Shown piece by piece: positions 44,926 to 56,236 of a DNA stretch of 64,000 bases. Under the pieces are notes generated by a model that saw only the letters and a list, made by a program, of their open reading frames with translations, was not told the DNA's origin and searched no databases. The stretch lies in the sequence record MK962753.1. One strand, 5' to 3'. The DNA is from Shigella phage JK32. The position numbers and the translations under genes were made by a program. Every line of letters begins with the position of its first letter. Positions within the stretch are counted from its first letter, which is position 1.

Positions 44926-45255
44926 TTATGAGTTTAGTGAATTAACTACTACATCAAAATGATGTACAGAGTACACCTTATTAAACACATACTCATCGTG
45001 TTTAGGAATAGCCCCTAATCGCTCTATTTCGCTCGCTAACACGATAAACCGTTTATCCGGTGCATTTACCTTATATGCTTCAACAACGCACGGGAAACGC
45101 GTTTCAGAGAGTTCTGGATAGTTTTCTGAATCCATCAGGACAATGAATACCCTGTTACATTGATTGTAGAATCCTGTTTTTGATTTCATCAAGTTTTCTT
45201 CTCTGTACAATTCGTGCAATCTTCCTTTCATGATTTCGTTGGTTCTTGTCTTCAC
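44926..45255 (-). CDS. hypothetical protein
   Basis: 109-aa ORF; overlaps next ORF by about 100 nt so start uncertain. Confidence 0.3.
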   Translation of the reverse strand: MKTRTNEIMKGRLHELYREENLMKSKTGFYNQCNRVFIVLMDSENYPELSETRFPCVVEAYKVNAPDKRFIVLASEIERLGAIPKHDEYVFNKVYSVHHFDVVVNSLNS

Positions 45256-45496
45256 AGTTTACCCACTCAACAAGATCTTTACCTAACTCGAAAGCCCATT
45301 CTCGGTCTTGCTTTACGTTTTGTAGGTATGGACTTTCTGACACTCTACGAAGTGATGTTGTCGTAACAAGAATGATCCCCGGAATGGTCGGATGTTCCTT
45401 TCCATATACAATAGGACGCGAGTCACTATCAATACCTTGTAAGAAGGTGTATCCTGAATCACTTAGAATCATATACTTTTTCATTTCACACATCAC
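45155..45496 (-). CDS. hypothetical protein
   Basis: 113-aa ORF. Confidence 0.3.
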   Translation of the reverse strand: MMCEMKKYMILSDSGYTFLQGIDSDSRPIVYGKEHPTIPGIILVTTTSLRRVSESPYLQNVKQDREWAFELGKDLVEWVNCEDKNQRNHERKIARIVQRRKLDEIKNRILQSM

Positions 45497-45750
45497 AGTT
45501 TCCTCAACCAGTTATTAAAGCGAGCAAACCATGATGCTTTTCGTGCTTCTTTTACTTTATGTGCACGTAAACTACTGAAACACCATTCATAATCATCACT
45601 GAAACATGATTCAACAGGAACACCCGCATTTCGTAGTTCTCTGGTCTTTATCATGAATCCTTGACATAAGGGGCGACCTTCAACAATGATAGGAAGTTTA
45701 ACTTTTTCCATGAAAGTATACCCAGCACGGTCAATAATTTCAATTTTCAT
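45493..45750 (-). CDS. hypothetical protein
   Basis: 85-aa ORF. Confidence 0.35.
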   Translation of the reverse strand: MKIEIIDRAGYTFMEKVKLPIIVEGRPLCQGFMIKTRELRNAGVPVESCFSDDYEWCFSSLRAHKVKEARKASWFARFNNWLRKL

Positions 45751-45995
45751 TTTACATTATCTCCATAGATCTTTCCATCAATATCAATTTCACCAGCGCG
45801 AACATCTAGGATAAGATGCGGTAGGTGTATGCAGTTTTCCCACCCTACGCGCTTCATTTCTGAAACAGTGACGTAAGCCCACCCGTTCGCTGTAATAAAG
45901 TCTACTTCAACCTTGAGAGGAAAGCAAGACTTTTCTATGTCTTCGAATCCGATAATGTGTTTTGTCGTTGAATATGGAATATATCCGATGATCAT
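45747..45995 (-). CDS. hypothetical protein
   Basis: 82-aa ORF. Confidence 0.35.
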   Translation of the reverse strand: MIIGYIPYSTTKHIIGFEDIEKSCFPLKVEVDFITANGWAYVTVSEMKRVGWENCIHLPHLILDVRAGEIDIDGKIYGDNVK

Positions 45996-46453
45996 TTTGT
46001 GATCTCCTTATACTCAACACACCATAAGCGGGTAGCCCATGATAAACGCTCATAACGCTGGCAGAAATCGGACCATAGATATTGTGTACCGTCTTGCATG
46101 GTTGAAATATGCGTTTTCTCACCTACTTTCACGAAAGAAGTATTCGATTTTGTGATCTCGACCGGAGTATATCCGAAAGCTGGTTCCAAGTCAACATCTG
46201 AACTAAATGCTAATTTAACAGAATTTGTTTTTCTGACCGCTGTCCGGTTTCCTTCTGGGTATAGCACAGCAGGTTTAGCGCCTAAGCGGATAAACTCAGT
46301 GTTTTTAATGAACAGAATATCATGATAACCGTCATATTCCGACACTTCCATAGTAACAGGAAAATCGACATGTTCTAAACCTGGTAGATCTCGCATATCA
46401 TGAAATGTAGCCATCAACTTTTTCATCTTGTATTCCTCACTCTTCTGTTTCAT
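45992..46453 (-). CDS. hypothetical protein
   Basis: 153-aa ORF. Confidence 0.4.
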   Translation of the reverse strand: MKQKSEEYKMKKLMATFHDMRDLPGLEHVDFPVTMEVSEYDGYHDILFIKNTEFIRLGAKPAVLYPEGNRTAVRKTNSVKLAFSSDVDLEPAFGYTPVEITKSNTSFVKVGEKTHISTMQDGTQYLWSDFCQRYERLSWATRLWCVEYKEITK

Positions 46454-46673
46454 TTCTTTTATATGGTACTATAACAGGATTAATACAGCAAGCACCAATT
46501 ACGTTATGAGCACCACAATTTAAGCATTTATAATCATGGAACTTATTAAGGAATCGACCAAACTCATAACCGACTAGCGCCGCATGTACTTGAGTCTCGA
46601 TCTCATCCATATCAGCCAATGTTTTAACCTTCATAGTATAATCCTCAAACGGTAGTTTTGCGAAGATGGTCAT
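46437..46673 (-). CDS. hypothetical protein
   Basis: 78-aa ORF. Confidence 0.35.
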   Translation of the reverse strand: MTIFAKLPFEDYTMKVKTLADMDEIETQVHAALVGYEFGRFLNKFHDYKCLNCGAHNVIGACCINPVIVPYKRNETEE

Positions 46674-46935
46674 TACATGCTTTTAATGCATCAGTCGCGG
46701 TGTCATAGCGAGTATTATCATAGCACCAGTAACCATCGGTCAACTGATAAATCAATCCATCCCTTTTAGCTTCGATGAAAGATAACTCTTTGAAAGTTTC
46801 TACTTTCTTTGCTGATACTCCACGGTCACGGCGCTTATAGAGTTTAGCTAAAATGCGTTCAGCTTGTTCCTCTTTATCACCAGACAGATCCCAAATAATG
46901 TTGCGGATATGTTTGATTAATTGTTCAGTGGTCAT
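46645..46935 (-). CDS. hypothetical protein
   Basis: 96-aa ORF after promoter cassette. Confidence 0.35.
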   Translation of the reverse strand: MTTEQLIKHIRNIIWDLSGDKEEQAERILAKLYKRRDRGVSAKKVETFKELSFIEAKRDGLIYQLTDGYWCYDNTRYDTATDALKACNDHLRKTTV

Positions 46936-46964
46936 CTTTGATTCTCCTTAGTTGGTATGTGTGC

Positions 46965-46992
46965 ATTATAGCACTATGATTTTCATTGTCAA
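46965..46992 (-). promoter_or_regulatory. early sigma70-like promoter (minus TTGACA 46992-46987, TATAAT 46970-46965)
   Basis: Consensus hexamers, 16-nt spacer. Confidence 0.55.
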
Positions 46993-47002
46993 CAACTAAA
47001 AA

Positions 47003-47029
47003 CAAAAAAGGCTACCCCGAAGGATAGCC
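47003..47029 (-). terminator. putative rho-independent terminator after adhesin-like gene
   Basis: Imperfect GC hairpin with UUCG-type loop followed by T-run on minus strand. Confidence 0.4.
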
Positions 47030-47036
47030 CATAAAA

Positions 47037-47816
47037 TTACACGCGAGCACCGTAGATCGTGCCTACTTTATCCCAGCGAGGGGCATTGCCAGTAACAGCC
47101 TTACCAGCCGCTCCGCCATTATATTCCGACCCCTGTCCACGGATATTACATTTACCACCAGCACCACCAGCATCACCACCGTTACCGCCATTATATACAC
47201 CGTTGACAGACCCCTTACCTGGCGCGGAAATAGTACCAGCAGTAGCACCCCGTTCCATATTAGCAGACCCACCGGCAGCACCAAATGGACGACCGCCACC
47301 TCCACCAAAAGTCAATTTCATTTGTGAAAAAGGAGAATAATACCCGCCGCCACCGCCGCCACCACCGCCGCAAATAGCGCCGTTATTTGTGATGCGTAAG
47401 CGTGTGCCTATACCGTTGTTAATTGCATTACCACCAGCACCACCAGCGGAGTTATTGCCACCATTACCACCACGCCCCCAAACATGAACACCTGCGTTAA
47501 TGATCAATGTTACATATTCGTTTGTTAACGAGCTAGGGAAGTCAAGACAAGGAACGCCAGTAGATTGGGAAACAATATTACCTGTGATAGTAATTACTAC
47601 CGGAGTAGATCCTTGTGCTTTCATCCAGTTAATAAGAGTGTCTTTATTGTAAGAGTTACTAGCGCCAATGCTATAATGAATCTCTTTAGAGCGTCCGACC
47701 ATCGCCGACATATACGCCGGACGACCTAAGCGAACAGCTTGCATTGCGGCGCTCATCCACCGTTGACCAGTCTCGGACACAGCCGATGATCCGACCCAAC
47801 CTGCTTTAATTGCCAT
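47037..47816 (-). CDS. glycine-rich protein resembling T2-type gp38 tail-fibre adhesin
   Basis: 259-aa ORF; N-terminus MAIKAGWVGSSAVSETGQRWMS and repeated glycine-rich motifs (GRGGNGGNNSAGGAGGNA, GGGGGGGGGY, FGGGGGRPFGAAGG) recalled as typical of T2/T6 gp38. Confidence 0.45.
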   Translation of the reverse strand: MAIKAGWVGSSAVSETGQRWMSAAMQAVRLGRPAYMSAMVGRSKEIHYSIGASNSYNKDTLINWMKAQGSTPVVITITGNIVSQSTGVPCLDFPSSLTNEYVTLIINAGVHVWGRGGNGGNNSAGGAGGNAINNGIGTRLRITNNGAICGGGGGGGGGYYSPFSQMKLTFGGGGGRPFGAAGGSANMERGATAGTISAPGKGSVNGVYNGGNGGDAGGAGGKCNIRGQGSEYNGGAAGKAVTGNAPRWDKVGTIYGARV

Positions 47817-47870
47817 AAAGTTTCCTCACAAGAAAAGCCCCAATTAAGGGGCATTGATTAATAATATTAC

Positions 47871-48092
47871 TTAGATGACCTCTGCTTCACCATTCAGGAA
47901 GAAAGACCATGTTTTGTTAGGATAGCGAAGCGCCCATGATTCAGCAGTTTTAACACCAGCTTCGAACAATTGACGGCTGGTTACTTTAGCCATACCATCT
48001 TCGATGGCAACGTTTTCAATAATCATCGGGTACTTAGCGCCACGCATGAAACCGAAGCCAGCGGAAGATTTGATAATTTTAACAGTTGCCAT
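47871..48092 (-). CDS. hypothetical protein
   Basis: 73-aa ORF. Confidence 0.35.
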   Translation of the reverse strand: MATVKIIKSSAGFGFMRGAKYPMIIENVAIEDGMAKVTSRQLFEAGVKTAESWALRYPNKTWSFFLNGEAEVI

Positions 48093-48133
48093 TTTTGATT
48101 CTCCTAGAAAGTGTATCTCGTTTCGATGGGTGT

Positions 48134-48162
48134 ATTATGCAATAACACCGGATCGCTGTCAA
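48134..48162 (-). promoter_or_regulatory. early sigma70-like promoter (minus TTGACA 48162-48157, CATAAT 48139-48134)
   Basis: Direct reading, 17-nt spacer. Confidence 0.5.
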
Positions 48163-48180
48163 CACTTTCTAAGAAAAATT

Positions 48181-48465
48181 TTAAATTAATCGAATATAGC
48201 CCAGAATTTCAGCACTTTTAGCCAGTCCTAAAACTTCCCATTCAATGTCGCCGTAGTCATAATTTGCAACCATCAACTGACCATTTTTCATGCAGCATTC
48301 ATGAGAGAAAATTTGCCCCGCATAAACTACGATCGTAATAAACTTTCCTGATTCTGGCGGTATGGAAGACAAAGCGACCATATGACCATTCAATTTAGTC
48401 ACCAGTGATGGAACAATAAAATTCGGGCTTACCTGAATGTCGTTAAATTCGTTTGTGTCTTTCAT
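48181..48465 (-). CDS. hypothetical protein
   Basis: 94-aa ORF. Confidence 0.35.
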   Translation of the reverse strand: MKDTNEFNDIQVSPNFIVPSLVTKLNGHMVALSSIPPESGKFITIVVYAGQIFSHECCMKNGQLMVANYDYGDIEWEVLGLAKSAEILGYIRLI

Positions 48466-48812
48466 GCCAGACCTCGCAAAACACTAATAGCATAATCATG
48501 CTGGTTATTCATAATATCAATTGCATTGTGATAACGAGCTAAACCGTCAAGGATAAATTCTTGTTTATCCTGTTTTAGCTTAGTATCACGCGCAGCCATA
48601 AGAGCATCGAGAACAGGTCCAAAGTGATTATCTAATTCATCTTCGGTTGCAATGTTTCCTATTGCCTCGTCGATCCGTGATTCTAATGCTTGCTTTTCGT
48701 TGATCACTTGCTGGGTATATTCCAACACATCAAGAATATCGCGGGTAACGTCGCCATGATAAGGTATTCCCGCATGAAGATGATCAATTAATCGCTGAAT
48801 ATCAATGTTCAA
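48462..48812 (-). CDS. hypothetical protein
   Basis: 116-aa ORF. Confidence 0.35.
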   Translation of the reverse strand: MNIDIQRLIDHLHAGIPYHGDVTRDILDVLEYTQQVINEKQALESRIDEAIGNIATEDELDNHFGPVLDALMAARDTKLKQDKQEFILDGLARYHNAIDIMNNQHDYAISVLRGLA

Positions 48813-49147
48813 TTGTAACCCTCCTCTGAAAGCACATCCCAGATCGTTGCATCAAGGTGCATTAAATTCCACATAATAGAGTCATAACTACCGAAGCCAG
48901 AAGTAAAAATTACATCACACTGGCGATAGGTCTTATGAAAATCGGTGGCTGTATCTGCATCAATAGGCATATCGTCACCGGAAAGCACCAGACATTTAAG
49001 AATCATAACTCTGTTAGCCGTTGGCGCTTGCTTAGTCTTTTCAGCATATTTTTCGATGATCCGTTTTGCCTTTTCTTCTTTGATACGTCCAGACCAAATC
49101 CGGTTTCGGTATTGATTCATAATAATTTCAATCACATCATTTTGCAT
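48809..49147 (-). CDS. hypothetical protein
   Basis: 112-aa ORF. Confidence 0.35.
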   Translation of the reverse strand: MQNDVIEIIMNQYRNRIWSGRIKEEKAKRIIEKYAEKTKQAPTANRVMILKCLVLSGDDMPIDADTATDFHKTYRQCDVIFTSGFGSYDSIMWNLMHLDATIWDVLSEEGYN

Positions 49148-49346
49148 TCTTCACGGTCTCCATAATTGTTTTGTAAGCCAGTTTAAGATGATCACCGAAA
49201 AACTTTGCAGTGTTACCCTTCGGATCGCGGAGCATGGTTTCTACGATCTCATCGGCAGTAACAATTTCTCCTTTCTTTGCTGCATGTCCTACCATATACT
49301 TCAAAGTTTCTTCGGAAGCAAGTGCTGCGGCTACTGGATTAATCAT
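49137..49346 (-). CDS. hypothetical protein
   Basis: 69-aa ORF. Confidence 0.35.
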   Translation of the reverse strand: MINPVAAALASEETLKYMVGHAAKKGEIVTADEIVETMLRDPKGNTAKFFGDHLKLAYKTIMETVKNAK

Positions 49347-49375
49347 TTTGATTCTCCTTTGTTGTCGATGTGTGC

Positions 49376-49404
49376 ATTATGCTATACCCTATTCCGGTTG
49401 TCAA
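49376..49404 (-). promoter_or_regulatory. early sigma70-like promoter (minus TTGACA 49404-49399, CATAAT 49381-49376)
   Basis: Direct reading, 17-nt spacer. Confidence 0.5.
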
Positions 49405-49408
49405 CACC

Positions 49409-49445
49409 TAAAAACGAAAAAAGCCACCCTTTCGGATGGCTTTTG
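49409..49445 (-). terminator. rho-independent terminator after the 712-aa gene
   Basis: GCCACCC/GGATGGC hairpin with T-run on minus strand. Confidence 0.45.
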
Positions 49446-49450
49446 ATTAA

Positions 49451-51589
49451 TTAAGGATTTCGGCCAGGGTAATGCTTAAATCGACCGTAACCAGTTTCAA
49501 TGCTCATATCTCGTTGACGCACAATCGCCCAATAACCGTTGCAGGAATCTTGAAGATATAGATCCTTACCTTTTAGGAACTCATTAAAAATAGTGATCTG
49601 CCAATCATAATAGACCGCATCAGCAAGACTACCCATCCAACCGTGCGGATCTTCCATCAGTTCGACAAGTTCATCAATTACCCAATATGGACAAGGGCTA
49701 AATTTACCCTTACTAAAATCGCTGAACATAGTAACGATCTTGACTTCCGGTCGAGGCTGATCGGGAATATCTGGACGTTTGTTAACTACGACTTGCACAT
49801 ATTTTGTGTAGCCTACAATTTCACCTTCATCTAAGTTAGTGTTATTGTTTTTGTCGGCAAATGCAACAAATTTGTAAACACCAGAATCGTTTAATGTTGC
49901 ATTAGCTTTACGATATACCGGAACACTGGAATCTGCAATAGGTAATTTAATACCACTTTTACTAAATTCATAGGTCGGCACATAGTTAGATGGCGGTTTA
50001 ATCATGGTTGCTTCCAGCACCAACGGATCACCCTCAGTAATTTGCACCGGATGCGGACCGTCAAATTCCATATTAGGAATTACTTCAACTTTATAGGTTG
50101 CACGTCCTGCAATATCATATCCGGTATGCGCACTATGAGGATCTCGGCTAGGGCTATCGCGATATTCATGAGACCAGATACCATTATGTTCTTTATCCGC
50201 CGCATCAGTAATCTTATATTCTTTCGTTTCAATCGGCAATTCTGTTACAAGAACATCGTTTTTCAAAATTGCTAACGAACGAGTTTGAGTCGGGTCATTA
50301 CTTGCTGGCGGTTCTGGATCAACAATTTTAATAACAATAGGTTCCCCAACCTCAATACCGCTATAATCATGCTCGACGTCATAGATATCTAACATACGGC
50401 GATCATAAAATAATGGGCGAGAAGTTGGAGTTCTCTGCGGATCATCATCACGCGCAGGAGCTACCAACAATTGCAGGGCTACACTATTATCATATTGCAA
50501 TTTCTCAAGACTAATACGGTCATAACCAGGATCACCATATTTCTTGCTTTGTAATTGCGTACCACCTAACATCCACGTAAAGTAGACATTATTTGTTAAT
50601 AAACCATAATGTCGGTTCCATGAATTATCAACAGGGGAAACTGGCATATCAATACTAACAGAAGACCCAGAAGGATAACGAAATTCAATAGCAGAAAAAT
50701 CTCGGCTAAAAAATTCGTTTTCCTTGACGTTAACGCGGAATCGATGGCGCTGACCATCCAGATACGATTCACTACTACCAGGACCATTTTCAACCTTATA
50801 GGAACGAATACAAGCGACATAATCACCTGCATCTGCTTCGGTAGCATGTTTCGTCACATATAAAGTTTTATTCTTTGATTCATAAACCAAAGTACCATCG
50901 CCACGTTCCAGACGATAACGAACTATGGTATGTTCAGCGTCATTTGGGGCATCGTCTTCTACAGTATAATAGGCAGGTGCATATTTTTGTACATTGAATA
51001 CAGCTAAATTTTCTCGAATTGTTGCTGTAAACGGATATACAAATTTAACATCACCTGTTTCGTCGCTTAATTCCATTCGATAAAGACCGGAAAATTCAGG
51101 CCATGCGAATTTTGCAATTTTAAATTCACGATGATCCAATCCCAAATCACCATCCACGGAATCAACTAGACCATTATTATAATACAAGTCAACAGAGATA
51201 TTAGCAGGAATATTACTACGAAAAACAATTTTCGCTTTAAGTTCATCACCAATATTAAATGATGTCGGAGGATATACATGTTCAACATATGGATTATCAA
51301 ATAACTTAAATGTAAAGTTTTCCGTGCCAATATCGATAGAATCACCACTAAATGATGTGTCGCCTAGCGCATAACCTCGAACGTTTACAGACCATCCGGT
51401 AACATCGTCTTCTTTAACGGAATCCAATGTAAATGTCGGAGAGGCACTTGTTGCTATAATCTGGTCATTTTTCTTCCAGACATAACCTTTTTTCGGTTTT
51501 GTTGAATCAGGGCTTTCATCAACAATACAGCAGCTAAAATCGTGCGGCATCCAAATCATATTATTGACCGTGGTGTTTACTACTGCCAT
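49451..51589 (-). CDS. large protein with probable Ig-like repeats (possible virion decoration or fibre protein)
   Basis: 712-aa ORF; recurring D.G.Y...F/C segments (DAGDYVACIRSY, DSGVYKFVAF) suggest Ig-like beta-sandwiches; inference. Confidence 0.35.
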   Translation of the reverse strand: MAVVNTTVNNMIWMPHDFSCCIVDESPDSTKPKKGYVWKKNDQIIATSASPTFTLDSVKEDDVTGWSVNVRGYALGDTSFSGDSIDIGTENFTFKLFDNPYVEHVYPPTSFNIGDELKAKIVFRSNIPANISVDLYYNNGLVDSVDGDLGLDHREFKIAKFAWPEFSGLYRMELSDETGDVKFVYPFTATIRENLAVFNVQKYAPAYYTVEDDAPNDAEHTIVRYRLERGDGTLVYESKNKTLYVTKHATEADAGDYVACIRSYKVENGPGSSESYLDGQRHRFRVNVKENEFFSRDFSAIEFRYPSGSSVSIDMPVSPVDNSWNRHYGLLTNNVYFTWMLGGTQLQSKKYGDPGYDRISLEKLQYDNSVALQLLVAPARDDDPQRTPTSRPLFYDRRMLDIYDVEHDYSGIEVGEPIVIKIVDPEPPASNDPTQTRSLAILKNDVLVTELPIETKEYKITDAADKEHNGIWSHEYRDSPSRDPHSAHTGYDIAGRATYKVEVIPNMEFDGPHPVQITEGDPLVLEATMIKPPSNYVPTYEFSKSGIKLPIADSSVPVYRKANATLNDSGVYKFVAFADKNNNTNLDEGEIVGYTKYVQVVVNKRPDIPDQPRPEVKIVTMFSDFSKGKFSPCPYWVIDELVELMEDPHGWMGSLADAVYYDWQITIFNEFLKGKDLYLQDSCNGYWAIVRQRDMSIETGYGRFKHYPGRNP

Positions 51590-51610
51590 GAATCCTCCTT
51601 ATAACTGAAA

Positions 51611-52009
51611 TTAAGCCAGTCGAGTGAGTTTATAAATGGTTTTAAAGCATAGAACTTTGATATCGTCTAAAACGCTCTGCAACGAGCTATCAACATCATT
51701 ATAAATCTCACTAGCCATTTGCGTTAACTCTTGCAAATAGGCAATTTCGCTAATCTCCTTGCGGACGACCAACGTTGGCTGATACCGACCAGTGATCCCA
51801 ATATTGGTTTCTGTGAAATTATCAACCAATTCTTGCATTTCAAGATAGAACTCTTCTAGAGCCTTATGTTTTGAATAAGACCCAGGTCCAGTTACCCCAA
51901 AATGCGCAGAATGCATATAAGTAACGCTCATTAGGCATTCACCAATAAAGCGGTCTACTTTATTAGCTTTTCCTTCCTCGGAAGTCTGCCTAAATTCACT
52001 GAATTTCAT
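51611..52009 (-). CDS. hypothetical protein, possibly ferritin/Dps-like
   Basis: Start set at MKFSEF after GGAG; MHSAHFGVTGPGSYSKHKALEEFYLEMQE loosely resembles Dps ferroxidase region. Confidence 0.3.
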   Translation of the reverse strand: MKFSEFRQTSEEGKANKVDRFIGECLMSVTYMHSAHFGVTGPGSYSKHKALEEFYLEMQELVDNFTETNIGITGRYQPTLVVRKEISEIAYLQELTQMASEIYNDVDSSLQSVLDDIKVLCFKTIYKLTRLA

Positions 52010-52295
52010 TATATCGATTCTCCATTTTATTAAGCACAATAAATTGATTTGCGGCATACTCTCCCATCATGAAACAATGTTTAGCATCCATACATTTACT
52101 ACGTGCGTATGTTTTCATTATGTGGTCATGAAATTTTTGACTTGTCTCCACCGATGGTTGTATTTTGTTTATATACACGATCATAGCACCGTCGAAGTAA
52201 TCAGTAAAGTCACCAACAGGACATTGATCGGCACTTACGCTACCAACTGCCATAACGCATATACCCGCAACGAGTGTTTTACGAATAAATGACAT
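51996..52295 (-). CDS. secreted/periplasmic small protein (N-terminal signal-like segment)
   Basis: 99-aa ORF starting MSFIRKTLVAGICVMAVGSVSA. Confidence 0.4.
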   Translation of the reverse strand: MSFIRKTLVAGICVMAVGSVSADQCPVGDFTDYFDGAMIVYINKIQPSVETSQKFHDHIMKTYARSKCMDAKHCFMMGEYAANQFIVLNKMENRYNEIQ

Positions 52296-52327
52296 AAGTC
52301 ATTCCCCCAGATTAAAAATTTCAAGTA

Positions 52328-52335
52328 TATTTATA
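52328..52335 (-). promoter_or_regulatory. late promoter consensus TATAAATA
   Basis: Exact TATAAATA on minus strand about 33 nt upstream of start at 52295. Confidence 0.4.
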
Positions 52336-52356
52336 ATCTGGGGATATATTTACGCC

Positions 52357-52953
52357 TTAGTGGATAGATCCATCAATAAAATGTTTACGACAAACAGAAA
52401 CATATTTATCCTCTGCACCAACTTCTATTTGAGCACCATCGCGAATAACATTACCATCTTTATCTACGCGAAGGACCATAGTCGCTTTCTTGCCACAATG
52501 ACAAATACCCTTCATTTCGACCAGTTTATCAGCCAATGCCATTAATGCCGCAGATCCTTCAAATAGATTGCCCTGAAAGTCAGTGCGAAGGCCATAACAC
52601 AAAACAGGGATATTGGCATCATCAACCAGTGCACATAAGCCTAAAACATGTTCTTTAGTCATAAATTGGGCTTCATCTACAAATACAGCATCTGGACGCC
52701 AGCGATCCGGTCTACGCTTACCGAGTGATTCACGATAAACCAAGTCGAAAAGATCATCAGATTTAGTGAATGTGATCGCTGGAGCACTTAGACCAATTCG
52801 GGAAACAACTTCACTTTCTGAATCTCGATTATCAATCGCTGGTTTAAGAATTAATACTCGCATATCACGTTCGGTATAGTTATAAGCACTTTGTAATAAG
52901 GAAGTAGACTTACCAGCGTTCATAGATGCATAGTAGAAGTATAGTTGTGCCAT
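52357..52953 (-). CDS. tk: thymidine kinase
   Basis: 198-aa ORF; MNAGKST P-loop and C-terminal Cys cluster typical of TK1-type kinases. Confidence 0.85.
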   Translation of the reverse strand: MAQLYFYYASMNAGKSTSLLQSAYNYTERDMRVLILKPAIDNRDSESEVVSRIGLSAPAITFTKSDDLFDLVYRESLGKRRPDRWRPDAVFVDEAQFMTKEHVLGLCALVDDANIPVLCYGLRTDFQGNLFEGSAALMALADKLVEMKGICHCGKKATMVLRVDKDGNVIRDGAQIEVGAEDKYVSVCRKHFIDGSIH

Positions 52954-53246
52954 TAATTAATCTCCAAAAATCCAGAAAGACCTAAACCAACATAAACCCA
53001 GATACAAAGGAAAAAGAAGCAAACACCCATAGCAAAGATAAATCCGCGTAGTGTCTTTGGATAACCTACCCAATATTCCCGACCATCTTCTAACCGGATC
53101 AGTCTATTGCCTTGAGAGTCCATATCAATTACAACATGTTTATTTCTGGATTGTAACAGATATTGCTTGACAATCTCAATACCCGCCATAATAACAATAA
53201 CGAAATTAAAAGTCCACATAACAAGGTTAATGATAGTCTCAAGCAT
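52953..53246 (-). CDS. small membrane protein
   Basis: 97-aa ORF with two hydrophobic segments. Confidence 0.35.
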   Translation of the reverse strand: MLETIINLVMWTFNFVIVIMAGIEIVKQYLLQSRNKHVVIDMDSQGNRLIRLEDGREYWVGYPKTLRGFIFAMGVCFFFLCIWVYVGLGLSGFLEIN

Positions 53247-53481
53247 TTTCTATCACCTCCACCCAATCAGGCGTTTCCTGAAATACTCCTTCGCCTTCGT
53301 GGTGGATGCATCCTTTATTGCTACAATACATCCACCAATCCCACATTCCCCACGGTAAACGCTGCATATCGTCGTTACAGCAAGTGAAGACAATAGGCCA
53401 ACCACATCTACCACAACGGCAGTTTTCCTTCATGTGAGCGGTATTAGGCTTCTTCATAGATGACTCCAATATAATCGACAT
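53239..53481 (-). CDS. Cys-rich small protein
   Basis: 80-aa ORF with CRCGRCGW and CC pairs. Confidence 0.35.
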   Translation of the reverse strand: MSIILESSMKKPNTAHMKENCRCGRCGWPIVFTCCNDDMQRLPWGMWDWWMYCSNKGCIHHEGEGVFQETPDWVEVIENA

Positions 53482-53684
53482 TTACATTTAGGGCAATGCG
53501 GTTCTTTAATATAATACCCGTCTGTCTTTGGAACACTAACAGGAGCGGTTTTTATATTGTATTCAGTGAAACAGCGAAAACAAGTTACGTTTTCTACAGA
53601 CTGACGTTTCACCCAATCACCGGAATATAGATCATTTTTATTTGTCATATTCAACCACCACAATATTGATATCTGGAGTAGCAA
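53454..53684 (-). CDS. zinc-ribbon small protein
   Basis: CFRC...CPKCKC. Confidence 0.35.
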   Translation of the reverse strand: MLLQISILWWLNMTNKNDLYSGDWVKRQSVENVTCFRCFTEYNIKTAPVSVPKTDGYYIKEPHCPKCKCRLYWSHL

Positions 53685-54093
53685 TATTAATGATCTCTTC
53701 TACACATTCCCACTCAAGGCCACCGATACCGCAACCGATTTTAGGAATATAGAAAGGCTGTATAGCACCTTCAAAAACATCATTGATAGTCTCAAATCCT
53801 TTCAGGATAGCACCATATTCAGCATTTGGACCAGGCCGGAATTGGGTATAGAGATTCACCCCGCACCAGTTATAACCATTAACTTGATGCGTCCAGACAC
53901 TAAACCCACCCAGCTTTTCTACCTTACCGCGAGAAGTTTGCTTGTCAATTTCTAACGCTTGCGGGAACTCTTTCGCGATCTTTGCAGCAATACCAGCGCC
54001 CATAGTATGAAAACAATTACAACCATGAATTAAATGACCGTTTCCTTGTTTAAACAGGGCGATGAGATCGCCCTTTACAGTATCAATAATCAT
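53638..54093 (-). CDS. macro-domain-like protein (putative ADP-ribose binding/processing)
   Basis: 151-aa ORF; HGCNCFHTMGAGIAAKI and IPKIGCGIGG segments resemble macro-domain glycine-rich loops; by eye only. Confidence 0.45.
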   Translation of the reverse strand: MIIDTVKGDLIALFKQGNGHLIHGCNCFHTMGAGIAAKIAKEFPQALEIDKQTSRGKVEKLGGFSVWTHQVNGYNWCGVNLYTQFRPGPNAEYGAILKGFETINDVFEGAIQPFYIPKIGCGIGGLEWECVEEIINIATPDINIVVVEYDK

Positions 54094-54108
54094 AATATAA
54101 ACCTCTCA

Positions 54109-54468
54109 TTAGTCACGGGATGACAACCCAGCCATAAAACGGCTTAACAGTGTGTCGCGATAAGCAAAGCACAATTGCTTATCAGGGGCAGTATCACACA
54201 GGTTGCGTTTTGTTTTAGCAAAGCTGGCAATACTAAGATCCCATGCTCGATTTTTTCGTTTTTCGTCTCGACCTTGTTTGTATGCTTCGTCGAGTTCAAG
54301 TGCGATAAAATCGCTACACATGTTATCATTATCACAGAAGGTTTTAATGATCTTTTTGTTGATCTCAAATCCTTTGTATTCGAACTTTGGATAAGGGCGC
54401 TCATTACTAGCAAGCGCACCAGCCGAGAACATCATAGCAATCATAGCAATTATTGTCAACTTTTTCAT
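54109..54468 (-). CDS. secreted small protein
   Basis: 119-aa ORF with signal-like N-terminus MKKLTIIAMIAMMFSAGALA. Confidence 0.4.
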   Translation of the reverse strand: MKKLTIIAMIAMMFSAGALASNERPYPKFEYKGFEINKKIIKTFCDNDNMCSDFIALELDEAYKQGRDEKRKNRAWDLSIASFAKTKRNLCDTAPDKQLCFAYRDTLLSRFMAGLSSRD

Positions 54469-54475
54469 ATATTCC

Positions 54476-55066
54476 TCAATAGCGTTTAGTTTTAAGAATG
54501 CCTTTACTCTTTAGATGGTTAGCCTTTTTTAGTACGTCATCAGCATAACCCAATCCGGCTTTATAGTTCCATCCAGCATTGTAAGAAGCTAGCGCGAGTC
54601 GGATATTACCGTTTCGAACATCCAGCCAGTATGCTAACTCATCCATCGCGTAGAATGCAGAAACCTCGCGATTCATGATAAAGTTGATAGTCTGGCGATC
54701 ACTCATTTTAACACCGCGCTTTGCATTTTTCGCTTTCACCGTTTTAAGGTAATTTTGAAATAATCCATAAGCATGATGATTTTTCTTTGGTGCTAAGTTT
54801 GCACCCGCGCTTGATTCTTGCCATGCGATACCCGCCATGATGTGACCTAAACCCTTTCCGTTATAGCGAATATTCGGATGGTCATGTTTCAACTTACCGC
54901 TTTTCTCGAATTGTTCGCCGTATTGATAGGCGAAATGTAAATTATCTAGTTGGTGTGCTGTAAAGTTGTCTATCGGCGCTTTTTTGATCGGTGCGCTAGT
55001 CGATGCGTGTGTAGCACCAACGGCTAGTGACAGACTCAATACTATCGCTTTTAGAACTTTTAACAT
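54476..55066 (-). CDS. secreted lytic transglycosylase (SLT domain)
   Basis: Signal-like N-terminus; SLT signature motifs IAWQESS, AYGLFQ and SYNAGW. Confidence 0.7.
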   Translation of the reverse strand: MLKVLKAIVLSLSLAVGATHASTSAPIKKAPIDNFTAHQLDNLHFAYQYGEQFEKSGKLKHDHPNIRYNGKGLGHIMAGIAWQESSAGANLAPKKNHHAYGLFQNYLKTVKAKNAKRGVKMSDRQTINFIMNREVSAFYAMDELAYWLDVRNGNIRLALASYNAGWNYKAGLGYADDVLKKANHLKSKGILKTKRY

Positions 55067-55151
55067 TAATTTCTCCTGTTTGGTTTAACTTTCTGATTCC
55101 ATAATATAGCCCTATCACCAGAAAGTCAAGCATTAATTTAACCAATTTCCA

Positions 55152-55574
55152 TTATTGGTCCACTTTCAAAACAACAGCCGACATTTTACCCGCCAGTCGT
55201 TTTGGATTCTCTATAATCATTCGACAGCATAGACCGTGATATGGCTTACCGTCTTCAATTAGGTCTACTGTCATCCCGATCCACATGTTACCGTCAGTAA
55301 TTTCTAATCGATTAGGTCGGTCTTCCATTTTCAGGAAGTCGAAGATCTCCGGCAAACGAGTCTCTACCTTATTGAATAGTTCCATTGTCTTATGTTCATC
55401 AATATGACGGTCGGTTAATCTGTCGATCATATGCGGACTAAAGCGAATGAAAATATACTCACCGTAACCATCATTCAAGCACTTTTCTTTGATCTGCGCA
55501 TTGGTTTTGCGCATTTCGGTTTCGAAGAATCTACGCAGCTTACTACGGCGAACGTGTACATTAATTGTTTCCAT
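55152..55574 (-). CDS. hypothetical protein
   Basis: Start set at METINVHV after AAGGAG; ORF track extends to 55646. Confidence 0.35.
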   Translation of the reverse strand: METINVHVRRSKLRRFFETEMRKTNAQIKEKCLNDGYGEYIFIRFSPHMIDRLTDRHIDEHKTMELFNKVETRLPEIFDFLKMEDRPNRLEITDGNMWIGMTVDLIEDGKPYHGLCCRMIIENPKRLAGKMSAVVLKVDQ

Positions 55575-55575
55575 T

Positions 55576-55914
55576 TTATTCTCCTTTCTTAAACAAATTG
55601 CGAAGCCAGTATACAAACGGGATTTCTTTAAACTTGAACTTGTCAATAGTTAATTCTTTAGTAGCAAGATGAATACCATAAGCATCATGTGTCACGATAT
55701 GCCATTTTCTATAGTCCAAATGTGAACAACCGTCTGAATCTAGGTTAATAATAGTTTCTCGCTCACTAGGATTGTTTTTCCACAATTTTGTAATCGGATC
55801 ACACATAATTCGACCTAGCGTACCATGAATAATCTCACAACGGTAAAGTTTTCCGGCAGTGATATAGGCACACCCGTCATAGTCGGTATAAACAAACACT
55901 TCTTTAACACTCAT
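55576..55914 (-). CDS. hypothetical protein (small YxF-motif paralog)
   Basis: 112-aa ORF. Confidence 0.35.
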   Translation of the reverse strand: MSVKEVFVYTDYDGCAYITAGKLYRCEIIHGTLGRIMCDPITKLWKNNPSERETIINLDSDGCSHLDYRKWHIVTHDAYGIHLATKELTIDKFKFKEIPFVYWLRNLFKKGE

Positions 55915-55940
55915 TTTTAATACTCCTTTGTTGTGTCGAT

Positions 55941-55975
55941 GGGGGTATATTACTACCCCCGATCATGGGTGTCAA
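55941..55975 (-). promoter_or_regulatory. early promoter with stem-loop (GGGGGTA/TACCCCC; minus TTGACA 55975-55970)
   Basis: Direct reading, 17-nt spacer. Confidence 0.45.
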
Positions 55976-56236
55976 CTACTTTTTCAAGAATTTTTTAATT
56001 GCGTTCCAAAGACCTTTATTCTCAGGCTGTTTTGGTTCTTCGATCAGTGTCCACGGACGGTCGTCAAGATATGCACAGCTTTTCAGAGAAATAAAAAGTT
56101 TGTATCCTTTATCATCTTTGATGTAACCGTAGGTAGACATTCTTTCATCTGGCGTAAACTTATACAGTTTATTTGGGGTGATGTAAGATCTACTACTATA
56201 AGGTGTCATTACATATTTCATGGTACTAACTCCCAT
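55976..56236 (-). CDS. hypothetical protein (small paralog)
   Basis: 86-aa ORF; similar to 56218-56412 product (YxFTP...GYI.DD.G). Confidence 0.35.
   Translation of the reverse strand: MGVSTMKYVMTPYSSRSYITPNKLYKFTPDERMSTYGYIKDDKGYKLFISLKSCAYLDDRPWTLIEEPKQPENKGLWNAIKKFLKK

Follow-up and report, generated by a model that had tools for sequence, protein, structure and literature searches.

A predicted six-Ig Hoc-like head-decoration protein encoded beside rI in Shigella phage JK32

T4 Hoc and its homologs carry a string of immunoglobulin (Ig)-like domains at the N-terminus and, at the C-terminus, an alpha/beta domain that binds the capsid. Hoc domains confer adherence to mucus and epithelium and also serve as the standard platform for display on T4. 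Approximately 650 proteins carry a Hoc anchor, and the number of Ig domains in a Hoc can be as high as 10 (Fokine et al. 2023, PMC10385173). Serratia phage Muldoon encodes a 1174-amino-acid (aa) 10-Ig Hoc together with a 314-aa Hoc, and Enterobacter phage PG7 encodes two Hoc-like proteins (PMC10385173), so both long and multiple Hocs are already established. Here we describe a gene of Shigella phage JK32, an RB49-like "pseudo-T-even" phage of 176 kb that was isolated from a waterfall stream in Ireland (PMC6832132); the gene probably encodes an accessory member of this family. The gene occupies positions 49451-51589, minus strand, of a 64,000-nucleotide stretch of JK32 DNA (record MK962753.1); this whole stretch is called the window below. 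An earlier note, made from the letters of the window, had marked a 712-aa open reading frame (ORF) with probable Ig-like repeats; its coordinates and length are reproduced exactly, and the ORF begins with ATG. The uninterrupted ORF specifies an 80.8-kDa protein that matches JK32_00086, a "hypothetical protein" of Shigella phage JK32, at 100% identity.

The predicted protein shares with T4 Hoc the order of its modules, an acidic isoelectric point (pI), variable Ig domains, a conserved anchor and dispensability, and its anchor has the WV-DE helix start and the S-x-N-G-Y loop. Unlike T4-type Hocs, it would have six Ig domains rather than three, 712 aa rather than 376-404, and Ig domains too diverged for Pfam thresholds; its anchor is ~27-29% identical to that of T4 Hoc, is without the YVHP strand motif, R300 and R357, and bears an extra conserved C-terminal tail. 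The gene stands beside rI and tk, not between gene 24 and inh/uvsW, and it coexists with a canonical Hoc. Like Muldoon and PG7, the phages of the type of Brandy that carry an ortholog encode more than one Hoc-anchored protein per genome and long, many-Ig fibres; unlike those phages, they have up to three anchor-bearing proteins, with the 712-aa type at a separate locus and its anchor markedly diverged. T5 pb10 and other Ig-bearing decoration proteins (PDB 5lxk, 8zvi) also have an Ig-like domain, which pb10 displays from hexamer centres. Their sequence similarity to the sixth Ig domain of the 712-aa protein is weak (E 0.4-0.8) and gives no significant homology, and unlike here, the capsid-binding domain of pb10 is unrelated and N-terminal. 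The Hoc structures used for comparison were 5vf3, 8t1x and 8t9r, along with the RB49 Hoc crystal structure of three Ig domains (PMC10385173).

No description of the gene was found in the literature searched on Hoc and Krischvirus, on JK32 and on Hoc paralogs, its presence among the ~650 homologues being unchecked; nor did the papers searched report multiple (up to three) Hocs, or a separate-locus Hoc with a diverged anchor, in Krischvirus. New here are the assignment of an unannotated family to the Hocs, its non-canonical locus coupled to rI, the markedly diverged anchor, the two coexisting paralogs and the pseudogene remnants in RB49 and Phi1. The assignment gives a functional name to a 2.1-kb gene so far annotated "hypothetical protein" in JK32 and in phages Brandy, UPWr_E1, SSG23, SFHK24 and vB_EcoM_G2248. 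Because Hoc domains mediate adherence and serve for display on T4, the diverged anchor and six new Ig modules may interest phage therapy, with SSG23 and UPWr_E1 as candidates, and capsid display engineering.

Ig-like domains and the C-terminal anchor

An AlphaFold2 model of the 712-aa protein was built on an alignment of 16 family members. The model, with a mean predicted local distance difference test score (pLDDT) of 80, contains six consecutive beta-sandwich units of 7-8 strands, each ~100 aa long. The repeated beta-rich segments with D-x-G-x-Y motifs that the earlier note had picked out are real: each unit carries one such motif, with a period of ~100 aa (TGW 64-66, SGLY 167-170, AGDY 254-257, NSVA 368-371, NGIW 469-472 and SGVY 569-572), and the motif, in the form D/N-x-G-x-Y/W, is the Ig F-strand signature. 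In a Foldseek search of the PDB the top matches are six-Ig chains, namely titin I65-I70 (3.8e-19) and contactin-2 Ig1-6 (3e-18). Against the viral structures of BFVD, the third-best match is A0A482GB96, an 846-aa Hoc paralog described below (E 4e-22). Structure prediction, which the earlier note had proposed as a check, therefore gives an Ig-like fold, and residues 1-604 are shown by the model as a tandem string of six Ig-like domains.

The sequence evidence for these domains is fainter. A profile search of the PDB matches an "Immunoglobulin-like domain protein" (9ncf_S, E 4e-8); the region around residues 34-75, in Ig1, is the stretch that matches Ig repeats in this search and the best-scoring one for many giant Ig-repeat proteins. 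The Pfam Ig models match only below threshold (Ig_3, E 0.009, over residues 512-576 in Ig6; Ig_2, E 0.016), and Ig6 aligns by BLASTP with the last Ig domain of a Slopekvirus Hoc. Comparison of the six domains with each other by hhalign shows no significant mutual similarity (best E 1.5e-3), so these are structural repeats and not sequence repeats. On the same result, a recent internal duplication of Ig domains was rejected.

The C-terminal domain connects the protein to Hoc. In sequence searches of the entire PDB, the sole non-Ig match is T4 Hoc (5vf3_Z), aligned over Hoc residues 284-362, with E values of 0.03 for the single sequence (phmmer) and 0.01 for the family profile. Pairwise BLASTP gives E 9e-6 against T4 Hoc and E 7e-13 against the Slopekvirus Hoc, the latter match spanning the last Ig domain and the anchor; the Slopekvirus gene is located at the canonical hoc locus, beside uvsW. 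Direct BLASTP against RB49 Hoc is not significant (E 0.086), and the homology runs through T4 Hoc, Slopekvirus Hoc and profiles. An exhaustive hidden Markov model search of 1.84 billion representatives returned only two full-length family representatives, many giant Ig-repeat proteins and two Hoc-sized proteins, P0040 (E 3e-6) and P0052 (E 1e-4), which match across Ig6 and the anchor. With hhalign, the C-terminal alignment of the family matches six Hoc C-termini over 71 columns (probability 96.6%, E 6.4e-10). Finally, PHROG 1149, "Hoc-like head decoration", matches residues 510-693 with the final 170 positions of its profile (E 4e-6). The Ig-like, Hoc-like reading of the earlier note is thus borne out by the six-Ig structural matches, the Hoc-homologous C-terminus and this PHROG.

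Because the family-only alignment, which held no Hocs, had yielded a pLDDT of only ~50 over the anchor, residues 596-712 were re-modelled on an alignment to which diverse Hoc anchors had been added (A3), which gave a pLDDT of 79.5 and a predicted template modelling score of 0.70. The profile search made for the anchor alignment gave only Hoc-like proteins of at most 201 aa, apparently through candidate selection, and served for alignment and not as a census. Foldseek of the new model returns the C-terminal domain of T4 Hoc (8t1x_X) at the top with probability 0.96; the other matches shown have probabilities of 0.35 or less. Since the alignment behind the model contained Hocs, this match supports the Hoc assignment without settling it. 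The Hoc C-terminal domain has no other structural relatives in the PDB (PMC10385173). Taken together, the searches show residues 619-712 to be homologous to, and diverged from, the capsid-binding domain at the C-terminus of Hoc (T4 residues 281-376).

As in Hoc, the anchor is the best-conserved part, and conservation declines towards the distal Ig domains. Mean pairwise identity in the family is 58% for Ig1, 73-74% for Ig5-6 and 85% for the anchor, and invariant columns make up 12% of Ig1, 34% of Ig6 and 58% of the anchor. The ratio of nonsynonymous to synonymous divergence (dN/dS) against the Brandy ortholog is ~0.11 overall, falling from 0.14 in Ig1-4 to 0.08 in Ig5-6 and 0.04 in the anchor; these ratios are approximate, as synonymous sites are near saturation (dS ~1.6). 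They indicate that the intact gene is under purifying selection. By one and the same calculation, the 712-aa protein has a pI of 4.90, T4 Hoc one of 4.74 and RB49 Hoc one of 4.57. Known Hocs have pI values of 4.2-5.2 (Table S1, PMC10385173), an acidity stressed by Fokine et al.

A separate observation concerns P0019, a 118-aa metagenomic protein on a 571-bp contig, which joins an unrelated N-terminal stretch of 55 aa to the last ~60 aa of the family anchor, at 85% identity. A further rearrangement or deletion at the locus of the 712-aa gene probably gave rise to it.

Distribution, paralogs and decay among relatives

JK32 is an RB49-like Krischvirus, and the DNA around the gene is 90-96% identical to Krischvirus genomes. 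JK32 itself lies outside the collection of 50,697 phage records that we searched, and the carriers counted here are other sequenced phages. An intact gene (73-78% identity) is present in five of these records, those of Brandy, UPWr_E1, SSG23, SFHK24 and vB_EcoM_G2248. The region is matched by 96 records, 41 of them over at least 80% of its length, so that the intact gene occurs in 5/96. Family cluster representatives with an uninterrupted 2.1-kb ORF number 16 and reach down to 43% identity.

In RB49, Phi1 and four other RB49-type relatives examined, the gene survives only as deletion remnants. RB49 retains (L002:4562-4889) ~190 nt encoding NTSINTTIWLPHTFACSIPAESEDPSKTRKVYHWK, which corresponds to family residues 5-39, followed by anchor fragments that read VTMFN*FSKGRFKHY; the same RB49-type remnant is common to GoldenSnicker, JEP8, E26 and MIZ6. 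In Phi1 (L003:4561-4969) the first ~28 codons are joined to residues 646-707, with stops and frameshifts, and ORF084.1 lies inside the remnant. The old start codon has changed from ATG to ATA in all six remnants (RB49, Phi1, GoldenSnicker, JEP8, E26, MIZ6). These sequences place a single inactivation of the gene first, with two or more independent deletions trimming it afterwards. Its remnants in RB49 and Phi1 make it ancestral to these Krischviruses, and it is a dispensable accessory gene, lost from most related phages. The remnants also account for an unannotated "intergenic" stretch of 330-400 bp, and for Phi1 ORF084.1, in the RB49 and Phi1 reference genomes.

The five carriers do not lack a Hoc of the usual kind. 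Brandy has a canonical hoc (L007:9422-10648) at the usual inh/uvsW locus, and the 408-aa product shares 90% identity with RB49 Hoc. An unannotated 846-aa gene (L007:10698-13238, minus strand) lies between its hoc and inh genes and is present in exactly the five records with an intact 715-aa ortholog of the 712-aa gene. Like the 712-aa type, this paralog has a long Ig string, of ~8 domains, and a Hoc anchor; unlike it, the paralog sits at the hoc locus, its Ig domains are strong in Pfam (Ig_3, 3e-40), and its anchor is canonical, with the motifs YVHPIPWRR, GYWVLDE and ESRNGY and 51% identity to the resident Hoc anchor. With the canonical hoc, the 846-aa gene and the 715-aa gene, the five carrier phages therefore encode three Hoc-anchored proteins; this count covers the five Brandy-type records, the JK32 hoc locus lying outside the window. 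At the position of the 846-aa gene, RB49 has only a 65-aa ORF, RB49p168.2. The 712-aa gene is found not at the canonical locus (gene 24 ... hoc, inh, uvsW) but between rI.-1 and a cassette of the PeSL type, downstream of tk.

As a side observation, the gene has ~76% nucleotide identity to its Brandy, SSG23 and UPWr_E1 orthologs, while the 11-kb region that includes it (45000-56000) averages ~90-91% to the same three phages and the flanks reach 94-96% to RB49-type phages. The gene is either a local divergence hotspot or an allele exchanged between phages.

Proposed function and competing explanations

In our favoured interpretation, the product of the gene is a Hoc-like fibre with six Ig domains that decorates the head as an accessory, a reading that the comparison with Hoc makes probable. 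By analogy with T4 Hoc, the C-terminal domain would dock one monomer on the outer gp23 lattice, most probably at hexamer centres, and the acidic Ig string would project outward from the capsid. Its reach would be about twice that of T4 Hoc, a 180-angstrom fibre, given six Ig domains against three. The variable Ig surfaces might let particles adhere weakly to bacterial surfaces, mucus or glycans, and might affect their dispersion. Transcription would begin at the late promoter 5' of rI and continue across rI, rI.-1 and the gene as far as the terminator, and upstream early read-through may add to it. As the phages with an intact gene also carry the canonical hoc and the 846-aa paralog, carrier heads could show up to three fibre types. 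Such an arrangement in some Krischviruses raises the matter of how the ~155 hexamer sites of a T4-type head are shared or partitioned. As read from its sequence, the protein has no N-terminal hydrophobic signal sequence and no membrane segment, which fits cytoplasmic assembly onto heads.

Several points weigh against this interpretation. The family-only alignment models the anchor poorly, and the fold match of the re-modelled anchor is modest (E 0.03, template modelling score 0.44-0.51) and comes from a model whose alignment contained Hocs. Several capsid contacts are replaced, as detailed below. The gene is not at the hoc locus, a location that is typical of the Hoc family and does not define it. 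It has a strong Shine-Dalgarno sequence of its own and its unit could be covered by early read-through transcripts; we infer its late timing. The literature searched gave no virion proteomics, binding assays or cryo-electron microscopy on JK32 or any carrier phage, and the JK32 and SSG23 papers do not mention the gene. Finally, most relatives have lost it, so any benefit would be conditional.

The capsid-contact residues conserved among Hocs, as listed by Fokine et al. 2023 (PMC10385173), are Y293, H295, R300, W309, W310, D313 and those of the loop E355-S-R-N-G359, which at the centre of the T4 capsomer touches every one of the six gp23 subunits. We mapped the Hoc contact residues onto the 712-aa protein through an alignment (A2). 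Eight positions are kept or conservatively replaced: W309 (Y635), W310 (W636), D313 (D639), E355 (D681), S356 (S682), N358 (N684), G359 (G685) and Y360 (Y686), each of which is the same in all 16 family members. Five are replaced, Y293 by I618, H295 by T620 (both in the YVHP strand), R300 by S626, W306 by P632 and R357 by C683, so binding to the same gp23 site is not assured. T620 and P632 are themselves invariant in the family and C683 nearly so. The family also ends in a conserved tail, ETGYGRFKHY, that has no counterpart in the Slopekvirus, 846-aa and P0040 Hocs and to which the T4 and RB49 Hoc tails are unrelated. On these alignments, the homology of the anchor to Hoc is well supported and identical docking is not.

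This difference is the basis of the alternative that survives best, which we nevertheless consider rather unlikely: a virion protein whose Hoc-derived anchor has been re-targeted to a subset of capsomers, a vertex protein, the neck or whiskers, or another Hoc. Re-targeting would permit coexistence with the canonical Hoc without competition for sites. It would suit the five replaced contacts with their fixed replacements, the C-terminal extension peculiar to the family, and the retention in the same genomes of a canonical Hoc with every signature residue, along with a third paralog. It is opposed by the retention of the helix-1 WV-DE motif and of the S-x-N-G-Y loop, the element that touches gp23 at the capsomer centre in T4, and the sequence names no alternative target. 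A more specific picture, which is speculative and in our judgement improbable, is a three-tier coat in Brandy-type phages, possibly also in JK32, with Hocs of 3, 6 and ~8 Ig domains in fixed proportions and without competition for sites, the re-specified anchor of the 712-aa type binding a different site or class of capsomer. If true, it would mean that Hoc can dock on a T4-type capsid in a second way, one not recognised before.

A role outside the virion, with the protein acting in the infected cell or its envelope in connection with the lysis-inhibition genes rI and rI.-1 of its predicted transcription unit, is quite unlikely. The tight linkage of tk, rI, rI.-1 and the gene is conserved in four diverged lineages, and the gene belongs to an accessory region with many early ORFans, both of which would agree with such a role. 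Without a signal peptide or membrane segment, however, the string of Ig domains would be confined to the cytoplasm. Apart from the Ig domains, a capsid-binding domain is all that can be recognised in the protein, and RB49-type phages keep rI and rI.-1 intact while their counterpart of the 712-aa gene is destroyed, so these two genes do not depend on it. A functionless relic heading for loss in JK32 too is very unlikely, since against the remnants in RB49, Phi1 and four further RB49-type records and the scarcity of the intact gene stand a 2.1-kb ORF unbroken in 16 cluster representatives, a dN/dS of ~0.1 (0.04 in the anchor, with synonymous divergence saturated), and an intact Shine-Dalgarno sequence, start codon and terminator. 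Two further candidates were rejected: a secreted or membrane role, for want of a signal or transmembrane segment, and a tail-fibre role, for want of a fibre-type module, the Pfam and PHROG matches being only to Ig and Hoc-like models.

Predicted transcription unit and genomic neighbourhood

The features of the locus are collected in Table 1. The gene's neighbours all lie on its own strand: tk, rI and rI.-1 upstream and, downstream, five small ORFs of 69, 112, 116, 94 and 73 aa followed by gp38, so that the five small genes and the gp38-like gene of the earlier note are both present. Its start codon lies 21 nt past the rI.-1 stop.

Table 1. Coordinates of the 712-aa gene, its predicted domains and neighbouring features in the window
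Feature	Position	Strand	Evidence or remark
tk	52357-52953	-	upstream of rI
T4-type late promoter TATAAATA	52328..52335	-	starts 40 nt 5' of the rI ATG; 746 nt upstream of the 712-aa gene
rI, an antiholin that regulates lysis inhibition; opens the unit	51996..52295	-	Pfam PF24205, E 1e-20; RB49 and Phi1 annotation
rI.-1 (DUF5856), directly upstream of the 712-aa gene	51611..52009	-	Pfam PF19174, E 3e-20; RB49 and Phi1 annotation
Shine-Dalgarno AAGGAGG	51594..51600	-	4 nt 5' of the ATG of the 712-aa gene; direct sequence reading
Hoc-like gene, 712 aa	49451..51589	-	stop codon 49451-49453; ORF list, 16 full-length homolog clusters, 43-100% identity
Predicted Ig-like domain 1, aa 1-97	51299..51589	-	AlphaFold2 strands 3-97; most variable domain
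Predicted Ig-like domain 2, aa 98-190	51020..51298	-	AlphaFold2 strands 102-189; SGLY 167-170
Predicted Ig-like domain 3, aa 191-290	50720..51019	-	AlphaFold2 strands 197-289; DAGDYVAC 252-259
Predicted Ig-like domain 4, aa 291-403	50381..50719	-	AlphaFold2 strands 304-403
Predicted Ig-like domain 5, aa 404-504	50078..50380	-	AlphaFold2 strands 405-504; NGIW 469-472
Predicted Ig-like domain 6, aa 505-604	49778..50077	-	AlphaFold2 strands 507-603; adjoins anchor, best-conserved Ig domain
Pro/Asp-rich linker, aa 605-618	49736..49777	-	pLDDT <50 from residue 610; variable in family alignment A1
Hoc-type C-terminal domain, presumed capsid anchor, aa 619-712	49454..49735	-	homology to Hoc capsid-binding domain
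Intrinsic terminator: 11-bp stem, GAAA loop, T run	49409..49444	-	6 nt past the stop codon of the 712-aa gene
Sigma-70-type early promoter TTGACA-17-CATAAT for next gene	49376..49404	-	11/12 matches
gp38 adhesin gene	47037-47816	-	PF05268, E 4e-73

A promoter, late or other, was looked for immediately 5' of the 712-aa gene and not found. The window contains three exact matches to the late-promoter sequence, of which the one preceding rI is the nearest upstream. That element is kept 33-41 nt 5' of rI in JK32, in Brandy and in the metagenomic contigs L009 and L008, and it also occurs in the tk-rI spacer of RB49 and Phi1. From the late promoter to the end of the gene, a scan revealed no convincing terminator; its other minus-strand match, inside the gene at 50919-50894, is weak, having only three G-C pairs and a T tail of low quality, and the three matches of the whole scan equal the number expected by chance. 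The order of late promoter, rI, rI.-1, gene, terminator and early promoter is common to JK32, Brandy, L009 and L008, whose products are 78% (Brandy), 61% (L009) and 43% (L008) identical to that of JK32, and the short spacer after rI.-1 with its purine-rich Shine-Dalgarno sequence is likewise found in all of them. This order is kept even where the sequence of the terminator and the genes beyond it are not; in L009 and L008 the terminator stands at the same place with another sequence. This arrangement suggests that the 712-aa gene is the last cistron of a late-transcribed unit, with early read-through possible.

The earlier note had assigned the gene to the early region, among replication genes, and had called a structural gene there atypical. 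The first of these needs correcting: the gene is not simply early, being the last of a predicted unit with a consensus late promoter 5' of rI and a terminator at its end. The second is imprecise, the neighbours being tk, rI, rI.-1, vs, regB and small ORFans of the hyperplastic region. A structural gene in this place is also not very atypical, given that the hyperplastic accessory region holds the adhesin gene 38 and the late-expressed rI as well.

The late promoter of rI lies within the loop of a strong predicted hairpin (52305-52343, minus strand; CCCCAGAUUA...UAAUCUGGGG) of -23.9 kcal/mol (z -5.4; 0/200 shuffles equally stable). Its 3' arm overlaps the rI Shine-Dalgarno sequence, and transcripts from the late promoter would be without the 5' arm. 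T4 lysozyme (e) and soc have a like hairpin arrangement, by which only late mRNA is translated. L008, the 43%-identity relative, has other arm sequences (AGCCAT...ATGGCU), and its hairpin still extends over the promoter and ribosome-binding site.

PeSL cassettes have been described in the hyperplastic regions of RB49 and Phi1 by Arbiol et al. (PMC2839356). The terminator and early promoter that follow the 712-aa gene fit a cassette of this type, and this pair accounts for the "promoter cassettes" that the earlier note mentioned with the five small genes. Such cassettes have been proposed to mediate modular shuffling in RB49 and Phi1 (PMC2839356), and repeats of this type could have promoted rearrangements around the 712-aa gene. 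The segment 49343-49420, which takes in part of the cassette, is ~79% identical to a second cassette located 5' of RB49 gene 38 (L002:2149-2225).

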